From: a virus
Lineage: Duplodnaviria > Heunggongvirae > Uroviricota > Caudoviricetes
IMG/VR virus record: IMGVR_UViG_2563366883_000019
Coordinates: 1-31,991 of that record
Direction: 5' to 3' (one strand)
Length of the DNA: 31,991 nucleotides
The notes below the pieces were generated by a model. It saw only the letters and a program-made list of their open reading frames with translations. It was not told the origin of the DNA and searched no databases. Position 1 is the first letter of the stretch. Each line of letters begins with the position of its first letter. The position numbers were made by a program, and so were the translations under genes. Shown in pieces: positions 9,413 to 14,650 of the stretch.

Positions 9413-11118
9413 CAGTGAGCCATCCAGTGTGTGGTTCTGCGTTTATCCGTTTTCTGTTTTACCCTCACCGGCATTCTGGCGCGCATCTCCTGGGCAATCA
9501 TGTAGCTCATAAGCTGATCATCAAAACAGCCTTCCTGTGCATTCATGGAGCCTTTCGCGTCATAAACGTAGGTGTTCATTTCTGATAATGTGCCCGACCA
9601 GCGGATCCCCGACAGGCCGTTATTCAGCAGCGTTTTCATTCCCTCTGTCAGGACCGGTTTACTCTGGCGGGTTGTCAGCCAGCCAAGACGGGGCGTATCG
9701 TCGTCATATGCCTGGTCAAGGTGCTGTTCGTTGTAGATATAACGCGTCGGATAGAGTTCCCTGAGTTTCAGGATAACGGCATGTCCGTGATTGTTACGCT
9801 CCGGCCCCACAAACGCATTGTTGTACATACGGCAGACCTGCGCAATGAGATGAGCGAAAAGCTCCGCATCGAGATGACCAAACCAGTGAGCCACCTGCTC
9901 ACCATTACTGCATCTGATGATATCCAGCGATGAGCGGTCTCCGTGCTCCAGCCCCTCAGCGGTATCCGCTCCGCATACATACTCTTCATCCGGATCCGGC
10001 AGCTCCCAGACCAGCAGATAATTCATCAGCGTCCGGTGCTGTTCGGCTTTATTCCCGTCACGCAGAGACTGTGCTTTGGTCTTCGTTCCTGTAACCGGTT
10101 CAATGTCATAAACAATCAGCGGTGGCGAACAGAATGACTCTGCCTGCAGCGTGCTTTCCGCACTGAACACCCGTCGTCCTGACGTCAGAAACGCCTCCTG
10201 TGGCGTTGAGGGAAATTCCTGCTTCATTTCCTCACGCTGTTCAGTTTCCTTGCAGATGTACCAGTGTTTCTGCTCATCGGTAAGCGTGATGTTCATTGCT
10301 TTTTCAACCGCAGAAAAATACGCTGTTTTTTCCCGTGACAGCTTAAGTCCGCTTTCCGGCACTCTGGCGCTGTATTTGAGATCCTGCCACCAGGCGTAAA
10401 AATGGAATTTATAATCCTGTGGCGTCAGCGCCAGCCCTGATGCAGTGATTTCCTGTGCCCGGTTACTCATCTCGTAAAAATCGCCACCCACACCTTCAGC
10501 AGTGGATTCATCAAAAATAATGCACTCATCAGAGACGGCATTAAGTGTACCGGTTCGCAGTTCTTTCGCCTTAGCCGGATATTTTGCGCAAATTTTGCCG
10601 TGCTCTGAGATATGCAGGCGCTGCACCGTACCTGAACGGAATGAGGTTGCCACCTGGATACTAGAGCCGTGACCAAACAGGATATAGCCACCGCTGGCTC
10701 CGCTACGACGTTCAACGATGGTGAATGAGGCTCTCAGCCAGTCAGGAAGATGATCAAACGGTACAGCAATTTTGGTGCGGAAAATTTCACTGGCAGCCTG
10801 TTTATCCTGAGCGACAATCCCGCATTTGAGATGCGGTATGAATAATGCCTGGTCGAGAAGATAAATATCAATGGCCGTGGAAAACCCCAGCTGGCGTGCT
10901 TTCAGGATAATATTTTTATTGTGCATGCTCCGGAACAACTGGCGCTGCGCCGGTCGCATTCTGAAGGTGACCAGCTCACCTTTTTCGTTCTGTATCTTGT
11001 AGAGATGATTGAGCCGCCACCAGGGATTGCTCAGTTTAGTCATGATGAACAGACGTTGTTCGGTCCCGGTCATTTCTGACGGTTCATCACATCGCGGTTC
11101 ATTCTTCCGGAATGTCAT
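9412..11118 (-). CDS. terL: Terminase large subunit (568 aa, P22/Terminase_6-like)
   Basis: Deviant Walker A motif KARQLGFST, characteristic of P22-type large terminases; GGGGAG lies 5 nt upstream of the ATG; overlaps the terS 3' end by 20 nt. Confidence 0.9.
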   Translation of the reverse strand: MTFRKNEPRCDEPSEMTGTEQRLFIMTKLSNPWWRLNHLYKIQNEKGELVTFRMRPAQRQLFRSMHNKNIILKARQLGFSTAIDIYLLDQALFIPHLKCGIVAQDKQAASEIFRTKIAVPFDHLPDWLRASFTIVERRSGASGGYILFGHGSSIQVATSFRSGTVQRLHISEHGKICAKYPAKAKELRTGTLNAVSDECIIFDESTAEGVGGDFYEMSNRAQEITASGLALTPQDYKFHFYAWWQDLKYSARVPESGLKLSREKTAYFSAVEKAMNITLTDEQKHWYICKETEQREEMKQEFPSTPQEAFLTSGRRVFSAESTLQAESFCSPPLIVYDIEPVTGTKTKAQSLRDGNKAEQHRTLMNYLLVWELPDPDEEYVCGADTAEGLEHGDRSSLDIIRCSNGEQVAHWFGHLDAELFAHLIAQVCRMYNNAFVGPERNNHGHAVILKLRELYPTRYIYNEQHLDQAYDDDTPRLGWLTTRQSKPVLTEGMKTLLNNGLSGIRWSGTLSEMNTYVYDAKGSMNAQEGCFDDQLMSYMIAQEMRARMPVRVKQKTDKRRTTHWMAH

Positions 11119-11950
11119 CCAGTCTCCCCGAATTACTCATTTCATGCAGCGATGACACGATGTCACTGACAGGCGTAACAACGCCCCGACGCTGGCTGGT
11201 CAGAATATCGGTTTCCGCTCTGAGTTTATCTCTGGCAGCGTTGATTCTTTCCCGGTCAGCACGAAGTTTTGGTGCTGTTTCCGCCAGAACGTCCAGCGTC
11301 AGCAATGAGCGTTCAATTGACTCGATACGGGCAATATTCCGGTCAAGGGCCTGTTCTGCTTTGAGTATTTTGTCGTACAGGGCAACACGGGTTTCCACGT
11401 CAGCCGCCTCTTTCAGGTCGGCGAACATTTTTTTCAGTGTTCCTGTTACTGAAAGTGCGCGGGCACGGGTGAACACCAGTTCATCGAACAGCACCATATC
11501 GGACGCATCATCCATGAGGTTATCTGCCTCAAGATACTTCGCATATCCACGGTGTCTCACGGCGTGGGTGTTACGGTCGCTAAACCGGGCAACGGGGTGA
11601 GGATTGCCCGATCTGCTGTTGCGTTTCGTTTCTGCCGAATTTGCGCAGTTTTTTGCGCATTTTTCATCACTGCCATCATCGCCGTAAGACTCGTCATTAC
11701 TGGACTCGTCATCAGCTCCATGCGCATTTTTTTGTGCGCTTTTTTGAGTGTCAATTTGCGCACTTTTTTGCGCATTTTTCTGCGCACTTTCCTCTGTATT
11801 TTTGGGGGAGTTTTTGCGCAGTTTTATGTACCGACGAGCCGTGCCATAGCAGATATTGTTCTGTCGACACCAGTCCTGAAGTTTTATGCCAGTTCTGGCA
11901 TGTTCGCGTCGGAATGCCTGCTCCAGTTTTTTCCAGTCCAGCTTTGCCAT
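11099..11950 (-). CDS. terS: Terminase small subunit with N-terminal HTH (283 aa)
   Basis: Immediately upstream of and overlapping terL; N-terminal DNA-binding-like segment (NICYGTARRYIKLRK); contains an AQK-type low-complexity repeat encoded by the TGCGCA array. Confidence 0.7.
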   Translation of the reverse strand: MAKLDWKKLEQAFRREHARTGIKLQDWCRQNNICYGTARRYIKLRKNSPKNTEESAQKNAQKSAQIDTQKSAQKNAHGADDESSNDESYGDDGSDEKCAKNCANSAETKRNSRSGNPHPVARFSDRNTHAVRHRGYAKYLEADNLMDDASDMVLFDELVFTRARALSVTGTLKKMFADLKEAADVETRVALYDKILKAEQALDRNIARIESIERSLLTLDVLAETAPKLRADRERINAARDKLRAETDILTSQRRGVVTPVSDIVSSLHEMSNSGRLDDIPEE

Positions 11951-12251
11951 GTCACTTTCTGACGTCCTCTGTTAAAAACTGACGCATAATGACCGCTGTG
12001 ATTTTTCAGAATTCACACAGCAGCGTCTTGTTTGATTGATATTTACACAATATGGTTGTTTTATCCGGTTTCTTCCACCACCGCACCGGACAGGCGGCCA
12101 TGCGGGAAAACGCTCACGTTACCTGAAAACGTGGAAAGCCCGGTGTGCATCGTTTTTGATTATCCCCACACACTCGCGCAGGAGGTCCAGTGTCTGGCTG
12201 AGGTCTCTGTTAATGCGGGAATACTGCGACGATACGGCGCATCAGCAAAAC

Positions 12252-12719
12252 TTATTTCAGGCACTGAGTGCGGATATATTCCTGTGCCCCTTCCAGCTGC
12301 TTCTGCATCATCATCAACCGCTCTCTGAGGGTGAAATAATCCCGTTCAGCGGTGTCTGCCAGTCGGGGGCCGGTTGCATTATCCATGCCGGAGGTGCCGG
12401 TGGCTTCACGCACGGTACCGGAGCAGGTGGCGTTGATCCGCAGGCGCTTACGACCAGCAGCAACATCAGCACGCAGAGTTTCATTTTCAGCTCTCGCATC
12501 GGCTAATTCCCTCGAGTATTTTGCATCGAGCGCAGCAACATCGCGCTGGCGCACCTGCATATCAGTAATGGTGGCGTTTGCCAGCTCCAGCTCTCTGGCT
12601 TTTTTATCGCGCTGCGCTTTGTAGGTGATGGCGTTATCGCGGTAATGGTCTGTTGCCAGCCACAGCGCACCACAGCCACCCGCCAGGACAATAATCACCA
12701 CACACAGAACACGGCTCAT
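12252..12719 (-). CDS. Rz: Rz i-spanin (155 aa)
   Basis: Near-identical motifs to lambda Rz ([44 protein letters not shown]); N-terminal TM segment. Confidence 0.95.
12314..12499 (-). CDS. Rz1: Rz1 o-spanin lipoprotein, embedded in the +1 frame of Rz (61 aa)
   Basis: Matches lambda Rz1 ([30 protein letters not shown]); lipobox VSAC; Pro-rich; lies wholly inside Rz in another frame. Confidence 0.9.
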
Positions 12720-12726
12720 CTCTCTT

Positions 12727-12858
12727 TCACCCCACCAGTCCCGATAACGTCAGGACTCGCCAGGCGGTGGAAAAGAAAATGGCAACCAGCATTAGTGAAA
12801 ATGAAATGCCGACAATTACACAGAGGATCTTCGCCAGCGTTATGAGTTTGTCTGACAT
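12727..12858 (-). CDS. Small single-TM membrane peptide (43 aa) between endolysin and Rz
   Basis: ATG at 12858 is preceded by AGGGAGG with 7-nt spacing; the hydrophobic core [19 protein letters not shown] is TM-like; stop lies 7 nt before the Rz ATG. Confidence 0.5.
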
Positions 12859-12872
12859 GCTTAATCCTCCCT

Positions 12873-13019
12873 TCACGATTTCAACGCAATGACCAGTTTT
12901 GCCAGCCCATACAGCATCGGGGACACAGCAACACCGACCGCCACCCACTTAATGGCAAAAGCCAGTGCTCTGCTGATGTCATCAGTTACAGGCGCTTTCA
13001 GTTCAAGGCCATTTTTCAT
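12873..13019 (-). CDS. Small C-terminally membrane-anchored protein (48 aa from the preferred ATG; alternative starts at 13055 and 13088)
   Basis: The ORF track frame is 12873-13088. Preferred ATG at 13019 has GAGG 6 nt upstream; the longest start overlaps a hairpin. C-terminal hydrophobic segment WVAVGVAVSPMLYGLAKLVIAL. Confidence 0.4.
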   Translation of the reverse strand: MKNGLELKAPVTDDISRALAFAIKWVAVGVAVSPMLYGLAKLVIALKS

Positions 13020-13087
13020 AGTCAACCTCAACAGAATTCGTTTATACTTTTCCATGTTCTCCCTTGCCTTATCCAAGGTCAGAAACA

Positions 13088-13122
13088 CAAAACCCCGCTT
13101 GCAGCCAACAAACGGGGTTTTT
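13088..13122. terminator. Hairpin with flanking A/T runs between endolysin and the small membrane ORFs (orientation ambiguous)
   Basis: AACCCCG ... CGGGGTT stem with a 15-nt loop; TTTTT on the plus side and TTTTGTG on the minus side. Confidence 0.3.
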
Positions 13123-13211
13123 ACTTTTATTCACTTAGTTTTTGTCAGTTCGCAGGATTTCGTGTTATCCGTCCGTGTGAGCAAACCGCATTTTTCAGCA
13201 AAATATTCTGC

Positions 13212-13745
13212 TTATCTGTCAATTCCCCAGCACGCCAGCGCGCTCTCCTGGTCACGCCGCGATACCTGCCCGTAACAGTTATTTGAGCGATTCCGACAGT
13301 CCCTGCCGCCGTCATATATCCATCGGCGGATTTCAGCACATGCACCTTTCCGGTCTCCGGCGTTCAGTTTCCGGTAAAACGTTGAGGTGAAGCATTTCGA
13401 AGGCCCGATGTTGTACGGACAGAATGACGCGATGCCCGCTTTCTGCGGTTCAGTCAGTGGCAATTTGATGTTTTTCTCCACCCATGCCAGCGCCTTATCA
13501 CGTTCAATGGCATTAACCTGAGCGCATTTTTCCTTCGACAACTTCATGCCCGGGACGACAGGTTTGCCATCCACCATGATGGCACCACGGCAGATGGTCC
13601 AGATCCCCGCACCATCACGGTATGCCGTGGTGTGGTTACCTTCTTTTTCGTCAAGAAACTGGTCGAGGATTTCAGGCGCAGAAGCACCTGTGGCAATCAG
13701 CGCCAGAACGGCTACCGATAAACCATAGTGGAGTTTCCTGCTCAT
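13212..13745 (-). CDS. R: SAR endolysin (T4-lysozyme-like muramidase with signal-anchor-release N-terminus, 177 aa)
   Basis: N-terminal Gly/Ala-rich weakly hydrophobic segment (GLSVAVLALIATGASAP); lysozyme catalytic region (EKEGNHTTAYRD...GIWT); C-terminus similar to R21 (GACAEIRRWIY...RRDQESALACWG); directly follows the pinholin. Confidence 0.85.
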   Translation of the reverse strand: MSRKLHYGLSVAVLALIATGASAPEILDQFLDEKEGNHTTAYRDGAGIWTICRGAIMVDGKPVVPGMKLSKEKCAQVNAIERDKALAWVEKNIKLPLTEPQKAGIASFCPYNIGPSKCFTSTFYRKLNAGDRKGACAEIRRWIYDGGRDCRNRSNNCYGQVSRRDQESALACWGIDR

Positions 13746-13749
13746 CAGC

Positions 13750-13965
13750 TTACTCTCCCCGCGCAGCTTTGCGCCGGTCTTCTTTAATCTTGAAATACAG
13801 ATTCGTCAGGTATGTCAGGAACCCCAGACACAGGCTCCCCAAAACCCCGATAGCAGCCCACTGTGACGGAGTAACCTGATCCAACCACTGTAGAAACCAG
13901 TAACCCGCACTGCCCGCAGAAGTACCATAGGCTATGCCCGTTGATATTTTTTCCATCTGATACAT
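13750..13965 (-). CDS. S: Class II pinholin with dual-start motif (S21-like, 71/68 aa)
   Basis: Near-identical to phage 21 S ([26 protein letters not shown]...AAIGVLGSL...[21 protein letters not shown]); Met1 and Met4 give antiholin and holin forms. Confidence 0.9.
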
Positions 13966-14041
13966 ATCCCCGCCCCGACAGACCTGTGCTACCGGAAATA
14001 AAAAAGGCCATCAGTGTTTTACTGATGGCCCTGCCCCGCCG

Positions 14042-14332
14042 TTACAGCATTGTGCCCGGTTCGGGTTGTGTGTCTGTCATATCCGTCACCGGTGACTCCG
14101 GCTGAATATCACCATTTTCCGTGGTGACATCTTCCGCCTGTGGTTCCGGAAGCAGTTCCGGGGATGGTTCCGGCTGTGCACCAAGCAATTCATCCAGAAT
14201 TGAATCCACTTCTGCATCAAGACGCTCTTCCAGATTCTGGCGGAGTTTTTGTTTCAGGACGCTTCTGACTTCTTCAGAGCGAATGACTTCCTTCACTGCC
14301 TCAGCAGTGACCAGTTGTTTTATATCTGTCAT
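14042..14332 (-). CDS. Hypothetical acidic protein (about 97 aa from internal ATG)
   Basis: ORF between nanS-p and the lysis genes; the ORF track's longer frame starts at 14506 and overlaps the upstream small ORF; no strong SD. Confidence 0.35.
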   Translation of the reverse strand: MTDIKQLVTAEAVKEVIRSEEVRSVLKQKLRQNLEERLDAEVDSILDELLGAQPEPSPELLPEPQAEDVTTENGDIQPESPVTDMTDTQPEPGTML

Positions 14333-14357
14333 GAGATTTTCTCGTTGAAAGGGGTTA

Positions 14358-14552
14358 TTAAGAAGGTTGTTCCGGAATGAGTGGGGCTTCTGTTTTTGCT
14401 CCGGCTGACTGAGTGGCGCTGATTTTCTCAGCGGCCCTTTTGTCAATCTGTCTGCGCCAGAAGTCGCGTACTGCCCTGTATCCACCTGAAAGAAGATACA
14501 ACACACAGACCACCGTACAGAAGTACAGCATTAACTGGTTGATGAATGTCAT
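14358..14552 (-). CDS. Hypothetical small membrane protein (64 aa)
   Basis: N-terminal TM-like segment LMLYFCTVVCVLYLLSGG; located downstream of nanS-p. Confidence 0.4.
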   Translation of the reverse strand: MTFINQLMLYFCTVVCVLYLLSGGYRAVRDFWRRQIDKRAAEKISATQSAGAKTEAPLIPEQPS

Positions 14553-14650
14553 GGTTTATTACCGTTACTGTTGACAATGAGAACTGTTTTCATTTAGAAA
14601 TGATTGATGTCGAAAGCATCCTTTCGTTAGATTCTCCATTGGGATTACCT

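Follow-up and report, generated by a model that had tools for sequence, protein, structure and literature searches.

Two conserved small membrane-protein genes in the gap between endolysin and spanin genes of 933W-type phage lysis cassettes

The stretch of DNA analysed here (the window) comprises 31,991 nucleotides of the viral record IMGVR_UViG_2563366883_000019 (Caudoviricetes), and our subject is two short open reading frames (ORFs) of its lysis cassette, ORF-A and ORF-B. Read along the minus strand, the cassette consists of genes for an S21-type holin (S) and a lysozyme of the signal-anchor-release (SAR) type (R), a terminator-like hairpin, ORF-A, ORF-B and the spanin genes Rz/Rz1, and the 492-bp gap between R and Rz holds the hairpin, a 33-nt leader, ORF-A and ORF-B. 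We found that ORF-A and ORF-B are real, conserved genes for small membrane proteins. A preliminary description, made from the sequence alone, had placed two such genes in this gap, in the late orientation directly after a hairpin, and this arrangement is confirmed, with both ORFs on the minus strand and the hairpin at 13089..13121.

Two small membrane proteins are encoded between R and Rz

ORF-B (12727..12858, minus strand) encodes a 43-aa protein with a single transmembrane (TM) helix that is probably oriented N-in. It matches phrog_4906 over residues 1-43 (E = 2.5e-27), a family of unassigned function in PHROGs, and the Prokaryotic Genome Annotation Pipeline (PGAP) annotates it as a 43-aa hypothetical protein (WP_001280930). 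Its best 19-residue Kyte-Doolittle window scores 2.87 (residues 11-29), the protein carries three basic residues and one acidic, and AlphaFold2 models it as one helix spanning residues 2-38 (predicted local distance difference test, pLDDT, 89.6). The Shine-Dalgarno (SD) sequence of ORF-B, AGGGAGG (12866..12872, minus strand), lies directly 3' of the ORF-A stop codon and 7 nt upstream of ORF-B, in a context that is unchanged in 135 fetched loci.

ORF-A (12873..13055, minus strand) encodes 60 aa from its ATG, with a basic N-terminal segment and a C-terminal TM helix. It matches phrog_1115 over residues 1-60 (E = 1.4e-42); the PHROG families concerned, phrog_1115, phrog_4493 and phrog_3246, are unassigned in function, and PGAP lists a 60-aa hypothetical protein (WP_021566721). 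The best Kyte-Doolittle window of the same length scores 1.88 (residues 38-56), and AlphaFold2 predicts a short N-terminal helix and a long helix at residues 21-59. For both proteins the distribution of basic residues suggests an N-in topology with 2-10 residues beyond the membrane. The preliminary description of a 43-aa single-TM peptide with a strong SD and a second, C-terminally anchored small protein thus agrees with hydropathy and AlphaFold2 for each. Its coordinates, 12727-13088, are also correct, with the qualification that 13088 is the GTG at which the maximal ORF-A frame begins, a start codon without an SD, and that the upper bound of the PGAP form is 13055.

Neither ORF has a meaningful match in Pfam (E up to 1) or NCBIfam, and sequence searches of the PDB with both returned nothing significant. 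We also considered whether either might be a relic of a neighbouring lysis protein. ORF-A aligns to the window holin by just a 7-residue local match, and its derivation from TM domain 2 of the pinholin (shuffle p=0.046 before multiple-test correction) and the derivation of ORF-B from the TM domain of Rz (shuffle p=0.036) were both rejected as not significant after 11 comparisons.

Both ORFs behave as conserved genes, with weak evidence of translation for an ORF-B homologue

We examined allele diversity in 230 related loci fetched from IMG/VR, and found 22 nucleotide alleles of ORF-B, all of 132 nt, and 24 alleles of ORF-A, all of 183 nt. Pooled Nei-Gojobori ratios of nonsynonymous to synonymous differences (pN/pS) were 0.38 for ORF-B and 0.18 for ORF-A, each the lowest of the six frames, compared with 0.13 for S, 0.11 for R and 0.47 for Rz in the same loci. 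In ORF-B the ratio is even along the whole length (0.32-0.41), and its synonymous diversity (0.27) equals that of S and R, indicating that its amino-acid conservation is not mere conservation of DNA. Fixed length, the purifying selection seen in pN/pS, PGAP and PHROGs together support both ORFs as genes.

These data bear on the alternative that ORF-A and ORF-B are non-functional chance frames in conserved linker DNA at which modules recombine. Such a view would accommodate the strong mosaicism of the lambdoid lysis region, the open frames that also occur antisense to hydrophobic ORFs, and the several database entries for these proteins that are frameshift fusions or truncations. However, amino-acid change in ORF-B is suppressed at a synonymous diversity like that of S and R, not one length variant occurs among the 22 and 24 alleles, each ORF has a strong SD that is conserved, and both also persist in other genera and within a different cassette. 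Ribosome profiling also supports translation of an ORF-B homologue. This explanation is disfavoured, and we give it almost no weight.

The homologue in question is XECs191 (49 aa) of O157:H7 strain Sakai, which Hücker et al., 2017 (PMC5597208) report among novel translated small genes. In lysogeny broth it had an RNA level of 30.0 reads per kilobase per million (RPKM), a footprint level of 12.6 RPKM and a coverage of 0.55, with lower values in brain heart infusion, and its product was predicted to lie in the inner membrane with a single TM helix (PMC5597208). The preliminary description had proposed translation as a test of its claim; the evidence on this is the profiling signal for XECs191, which is weak and comes from uninduced cultures (PMC5597208). 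What is already known of these genes is their presence in databases as hypothetical proteins and, for XECs191, the report of a translated small ORF. The peptide strings of these ORFs were not found in the main texts of the full-text literature, and a survey of lysis cassettes of Shiga toxin (Stx) phages (PMC8136144) leaves the small ORFs unmentioned. Three features set out below appear to be undescribed in searchable literature: a module that is portable between unrelated lysis cassettes, a coupled chain with a spanin gene at its end, and arrays of paralogous small-TM ORFs.

A terminator-like hairpin and a leader precede ORF-A

The 5' edge of the ORF-A module is an intrinsic-terminator-like hairpin with a 14-bp stem, found by a hairpin scan (13089..13121, minus strand), that sits within a predicted RNA structure of -47.8 kcal/mol (z -3.6). 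Four lineages retain it (the window, Citrobacter, Cronobacter and the Salmonella-like locus L167); the outer stem is constant among them and the inner stem is lineage-specific, with one covarying pair that reads UG, GC, UA or AU. The stem is preceded by A-rich and followed by T-rich sequence, so action in both directions is possible, and on the plus strand a T-run follows the hairpin in every aligned lineage. In Stx phages of the ant type, which do not have the hairpin, homology to the window ends exactly at the hairpin start and resumes at the start of ORF-B, indicating that hairpin, leader and ORF-A form one exchangeable unit and that ORF-B stays with Rz.

The 33-nt ORF-A leader (13056..13088, minus strand) contains the SD AAGGGAG (13059..13065) and is nearly invariant across lineages, including Cronobacter, where ORF-A is deleted. 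A second small hairpin, CCUUG..CAAGG (13062..13078), is predicted to overlap this SD, and its stem is invariant. The leader SD stands about 3 nt from Met1 of ORF-A and partly within the predicted stem. A candidate second start, Met13 (ATG at 13017..13019), would give a 48-aa product and has its own SD, GAGG (13026..13029), 6 nt upstream, in a sequence context that is conserved among loci. The 12-residue N-terminal extension that separates the two starts is basic and is conserved in distant homologues. The presence of two plausible starts resembles the dual-start motifs of holin genes.

A scan of the late strand from 12200 to 14100 found no sigma-70-like site. On the plus strand we found one promoter-like site, TAGTCA and TATACT separated by 18 nt (13019..13048), which lies inside the 5' end of ORF-A and faces the hairpin. 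It matches at 9 of 12 positions, a score at which 1.5 sites are expected by chance in the region, and in Citrobacter (locus L248) the hexamers are identical to those of the window. Transcription from this site could give an antisense RNA of about 75 nt over the ORF-A start region. An Rfam search of 11900..14600 returned only a sub-threshold match to the rimP leader (E = 0.11), which we rejected as being in fact the terminator-like hairpin, and the literature on small RNAs that we examined (AgvB, AsxR) places no known small RNA at this locus.

Taken together, these elements could be read as a type I toxin-like system, in which ORF-A would be a membrane-damaging peptide and the antisense RNA would cover its start region and end at the bidirectional hairpin. 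The promoter-like hexamers shared with Citrobacter, the T-run on the plus strand and the small, hydrophobic nature of the peptides are compatible with such a system, as is a synonymous diversity that is lower in ORF-A codons 1-12 (pS 0.09) than elsewhere (0.14-0.18). However, the promoter match is of a quality expected by chance, conservation of the hexamers cannot be separated from that of the coding sequence and the internal SD of Met13, and Rfam offers nothing beyond the sub-threshold match to the hairpin. Furthermore, no promoter was found for the mRNA of the supposed toxin, and the NCBIfam models of type I toxins match neither ORF. We therefore regard a toxin-antisense pair as very improbable.

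Distribution of the genes and content of the R-Rz gap

Escherichia phage PhiR12_3 (strain ECOR13, PV340552) matches the region at 100% identity, and prophages nearly identical to it are present in many human E. coli isolates. At a coverage of at least 80%, ORF-B occurs in 1711 of 5426 complete E. coli genomes (32%), in up to 11 copies per genome, and ORF-A occurs in 1044 of the same 5426 (19%). ORF-B is also present in 276 phage records, including 933W, VT2-Sakai, Min27 and phi24B, compared with 14 for ORF-A; 933W and VT2-Sakai carry ant in place of ORF-A. Among fetched loci with both R and Rz, 162 have the order R-A-B-Rz and 45 the order R-ant-B-Rz, and the rest hold other combinations of small TM ORFs (counts that take in some contigs fetched twice). 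The preliminary description had treated the two genes as an unusual insertion, a view that these frequencies contradict, and had named a lack of conservation in related prophages as what would refute its claim; the ORFs are clearly conserved.

The same description took gap-free S-R-Rz order as the norm. This is true of the DLP12/phage-21 type, of which DLP12 in K-12 is an example, its essD, rrrD and rzpD genes overlapping by 1 and 4 nt; it is not true of the 933W type, as cassettes with a 177-aa 933W-type R normally have a filled R-Rz gap.

In other prophages small TM ORFs form chains, among them C31-B-A'-D28-Rz and A-D28-Rz. Here A' denotes the TM core of ORF-A (38 aa), D28 a paralogue of this core (28 aa; shuffle p<0.0005), and C31 a 31-aa ORF that resembles the C-terminal half of ORF-A (p=0.0035). 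Three or four such ORFs (C31, B, A', D28) stand before Rz in loci L005 (612..1175), L006 (1569..2015), L131 and L147. Among the database proteins, P0205, P0207, P0209-P0212, P0235 and P0154 are chimeras, probably arising from frameshifts, assembly errors or recombination, and join the N-terminus of B to the C-terminus of A' by a frame switch, the N-terminus of the holin to the C-terminus of A, or A through into B. The B::A' fusions were considered as a "Rosetta stone" link and left unused, as the frame switches in the 3' part of B into a long upstream extension of the A' frame; they are probably frameshifts or sequencing errors.

The module in other genera

A profile search extended the relatives of ORF-B to Citrobacter portucalensis and Cronobacter, where the surrounding cassette is unrelated and comprises Phage_holin_8, Phage_holin_3_7 and a GH108/PG_binding_3 endolysin without an N-terminal hydrophobic segment. 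In Citrobacter this endolysin is followed by the same hairpin, leader, ORF-A and ORF-B and then by a 60-aa lipoprotein; in Cronobacter ORF-A is deleted and the leader is retained, followed by ORF-B and the lipoprotein. Because the hairpin-A-B module also stands after a non-SAR GH108 endolysin with unrelated holins, it is not specific to pinholins or to SAR endolysins.

The 60-aa lipoprotein (L248, 3640..3822; L246, 3640..3822) has a lipobox, LVGC or PVGC, belongs to phrog_7528 and begins with an ATG 4 nt after the ORF-B stop. No Rz/Rz1 was recognised in the Citrobacter and Cronobacter cassettes that carry it, and it could be a candidate for an unrecognised outer-membrane lysis component. In the Cronobacter prophage (L245-L247, 741..1859), the genes immediately preceding the holin genes match heat-labile enterotoxin A (PF01375) and LT-IIB (PF06453); Stx phages carry stx at this position.

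In the Salmonella-like locus L167, a different SAR-type lysozyme is followed by ORF-A and then Rz. A 32-aa hydrophobic ORF (MAAMICFVAAFMLACDGRSGWGWFLLVGLIVM; L167, 3214..3312) overlaps the end of this lysozyme, upstream of the hairpin-ORF-A module. An exhaustive hidden Markov model search with ORF-A returned 19 matching clusters among 1.84 billion representative proteins, indicating that the family is small and has no annotated relatives that might supply a function. One distant ORF-A homologue lies after the endolysin of a P2-like myophage.

The junction between ORF-B and Rz

Without exception, ORF-B abuts the gene that follows it. In the window, 7 nt separate the ORF-B stop from the Rz ATG; the most frequent class of alleles has a GTG as the first codon of the longest Rz ORF, overlapping the ORF-B stop (GTGA). 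This spacing is kept beside Rz alleles of just 56-62% identity. In Stx phages the stop of ant overlaps the start of a long form of the B ORF. Some loci have a methyltransferase gene between B and Rz; this insert begins where Rz usually would, and its stop codon overlaps with the start of Rz. The inserted ORF (L017-L020, about 3640..4575) encodes 311 aa, was recognised as DNA methyltransferase-like by eye and falls exactly between ORF-B and Rz. From the tight spacing we infer that ORF-B belongs to a translationally coupled chain ending in Rz, and would be made at the same time and at the same membrane site as the i-spanin.

Such junctions also raise the question of how far the ORF-B peptide itself matters. 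ORF-B might serve mainly in cis, as a translational coupler that feeds ribosomes to a poorly initiated Rz start, a start that would have lost its coupling to R once an accessory slot opened between the two genes. This account is compatible with a lysis role and with cargo genes alike, and several arrangements suggest it: R and Rz overlap by 4 nt in gap-free cassettes, ORF-B fills that place in gapped cassettes, joined to Rz by the GTGA overlap or the 7-nt spacer and equipped with an SD much stronger than that of Rz, the stop of the inserted methyltransferase overlaps the Rz start, and ORF-B in Citrobacter and Cronobacter likewise abuts the next gene, a small lipoprotein. However, the peptide is itself constrained (pN/pS 0.38, at a similar level throughout), its length is fixed at 43-44 residues and it remains a TM peptide across Escherichia, Citrobacter and Cronobacter. 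A conserved hydrophobic helix would be needless in a pure coupler, and ORF-A would be left unexplained. We consider it improbable that coupling is the main function of ORF-B.

Flanking lysis genes and neighbouring features

The holin (13750..13965, minus strand, 71 aa) is an S21-type class II holin of the pinholin family (PF04971, E = 5e-35; phrog_20 and phrog_9876, "holin"). Lysozyme R (13212..13745, minus strand, 177 aa) is of the 933W type (PF00959, E = 8e-25), has a SAR-like N-terminal segment that is weakly hydrophobic, and shares 90% identity with R of a 933W-type Stx1 phage; R of 933W has been employed as a SAR endolysin (PMC9239132). Downstream, ORF-B adjoins the i-spanin Rz (12252..12719, minus strand, 155 aa; PF03245, E = 7e-50; phrog_13), in which the o-spanin lipoprotein Rz1 is embedded (12314..12499, minus strand; PF06085, E = 3e-21; phrog_3198).

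A second terminator-like hairpin (14004..14032, minus strand) lies just upstream of the holin gene S, with a 12-bp stem followed by TTTTTATTT. Further along, upstream of the large terminase, a 283-aa ORF (11099..11950, minus strand) has no annotation beyond "hypothetical protein" and a "DNA packaging" note, and contains the low-complexity repeat SAQKNAQKSAQIDTQKSAQKNA and an acidic serine-rich stretch.

A possible role in the membrane steps of lysis

The reading that we favour, with a confidence that falls somewhat short of even, is that ORF-A and ORF-B encode accessory micro-proteins, made late and placed in the inner membrane, where they modulate the membrane steps of lysis. The two ORFs would be late lysis-operon genes for single-pass micro-proteins with almost no periplasmic part, carried on a portable module of hairpin, leader, A and B that sits directly between the endolysin gene and the gene for outer-membrane disruption. 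As no late-strand promoter was detected and a conserved terminator lies upstream, the two genes are probably transcribed along with S, R and Rz, and by antiterminated late RNA polymerase alone. The peptides might tune the time of holin triggering, the energisation of the membrane or the readiness of the spanins, whatever the type of holin or endolysin. A lysis-related role fits the genomic context. The suggestion of lysis modulation in the preliminary description therefore seems plausible in its general form, and its pinholin-specific and SAR-specific versions are disfavoured.

Several observations weigh against a lysis role. The content of the slot varies, with ant in place of A, a methyltransferase insert and between one and four small ORFs, a pattern typical of slots for morons (accessory cargo genes). 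Canonical 21/DLP12 cassettes function without A and B, which can thus be accessory at most. In a siphophage (locus L238), A-like and C31-like ORFs lie between the tail assembly chaperone and tape-measure genes, and another distant A-like gene follows tail-fibre genes. The association of ORF-B alleles with S, R and Rz segments tracks physical distance, giving no evidence of co-evolution; for the same reason allele covariation, considered as a hint of a partner gene, was set aside as uninformative. The ribosome-profiling signal of XECs191 may also include multi-copy mapping, in addition to being weak and coming from uninduced cultures.

Much of this would be expected if the ORFs were morons with an envelope function unrelated to lysis, such as a block to superinfecting DNA entry, protection of the cell or anti-defence, carried as small TM cargo in permissive late-operon slots. 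The sharing of one slot with ant or a DNA methyltransferase, the mosaic arrays of A, A', B, C31 and D28, and the A-like genes among tail genes all point in this direction, the tail assembly chaperone/tape-measure position being also that of the exclusion moron gp15 in HK97. A neighbouring small TM ORF in locus L243 matches phrog_35629, which PHROGs files under "moron", and detection of XECs191 in uninduced Sakai cultures would suit expression in a lysogen, although spontaneously induced cells could explain that signal. However, a promoter of its own and a terminator downstream are the marks of a classic moron; here the late strand is without a promoter-like site and the conserved terminator lies upstream, so expression in a lysogen is not expected. 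PADLOC models gave no match to A, B, C31 or D28 at E up to 1, and the tight start and stop junctions with Rz favour integration into the lysis operon. On balance we think it unlikely that the module is cargo of this kind, while giving this reading more weight than any other rival to a lysis role.

Returning to a role in lysis, a bolder extension can be framed, which we consider doubtful: the A/A'/D28/C31 family and ORF-B may form an unrecognised class of lysis micro-proteins, single-helix peptides of the inner membrane translationally coupled with the spanin, that set the time of lysis or license the last step of envelope disruption with any type of holin or endolysin, with ORF-A possibly made as two isoforms (from Met1 and Met13) under the SD-sequestering stem-loop, as holin/antiholin pairs are.

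In pathogenic E. coli, Shiga toxin and phage are released under the control of the 933W-type cassette, which is also present in a large share of commensal strains. If the micro-proteins affect the timing or completeness of lysis, burst size and toxin release would depend on factors that have gone unrecognised, and the holin-endolysin-spanin model would gain a component that is independent of holin type. If they have no lysis role, the locus would be an example of small-peptide cargo held in an essential operon through translational coupling.

Comparison with known systems

In size and in having a single hydrophobic helix, ORF-A and ORF-B resemble enterobacterial type I toxins (Hok, TisB, Ibs, Ldr) and small membrane regulators (MgrB, AcrZ), but they differ in having no NCBIfam or Pfam match and no promoter of their own, and an antisense RNA is only weakly predicted. 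Within the lysis cassette, neither ORF belongs to the families of its neighbours. Neither matches the pinholin family (PF04971), whose members have two TM domains, compared with one hydrophobic segment in each ORF. Neither matches the spanin families PF03245 and PF06085 or has the lipobox of an o-spanin, and about 10 residues (ORF-B) or 2-8 residues (ORF-A) follow the helix, compared with the periplasmic coiled-coil domain of an i-spanin.

The preliminary description had raised a disruptin-like role. The disruptin gp28 of phiKT is likewise a small phage peptide among lysis genes that acts on membranes, but it is described as a cationic antimicrobial peptide that replaces spanins (bioRxiv 10.1101/515445), whereas ORF-A and ORF-B are hydrophobic TM helices, not cationic amphipathic ones, beside an intact Rz/Rz1 pair; such a role is unlikely. 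Holin-like actinobacteriophage proteins such as LysF1a and LysF1b are small TM proteins of a lysis cassette, probably encoded downstream of the lysins, that jointly regulate lysis (PMC13056207, PMC9671378). They are holins themselves, however, with another number of TM segments, another host envelope and unrelated sequences, whereas the window cassette has its own holin.

The Mu protein gp25 or "releasin" (DUF2730) is a 99-aa protein of N-out/C-in topology with a 73-aa acidic cytoplasmic domain that acts with a SAR endolysin (PMC9239132). Like ORF-A and ORF-B it is a small single-pass membrane protein encoded near endolysin and spanin genes, but the two ORFs have no DUF2730 match, are only 60 and 43 aa long and probably have the opposite topology, and in ORF-A the TM helix is C-terminal and the N-terminus is basic. 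The occurrence of the module beside the non-SAR GH108 endolysin argues against releasin-like roles and against pinholin-specific antiholin roles.

In gene position, a precedent for the favoured reading is phage P2, in which the membrane protein LysA, described as an antiholin and predicted to have four TM domains, is encoded between endolysin K and the spanins LysB/LysC (PMC3091744). LysA shares with the two ORFs its place between the endolysin and the i-/o-spanin genes and a status that is accessory rather than essential, but differs from them in its number of TM domains, ORF-A (60 aa) and ORF-B (43 aa) having one helix each; no sequence relationship of ORF-A or ORF-B to LysA was found.

Two further antiholins, S107 of lambda and S21-71, are holin isoforms that differ from the holin by 2-3 residues. 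ORF-A differs from these in being a separate gene whose two starts are 12 residues apart. Like them, however, it would be a small inner-membrane timing regulator made from the lysis operon, it likewise has two plausible starts, and its long form has extra basic residues and a predicted stem-loop over the first SD, as in a dual-start antiholin.

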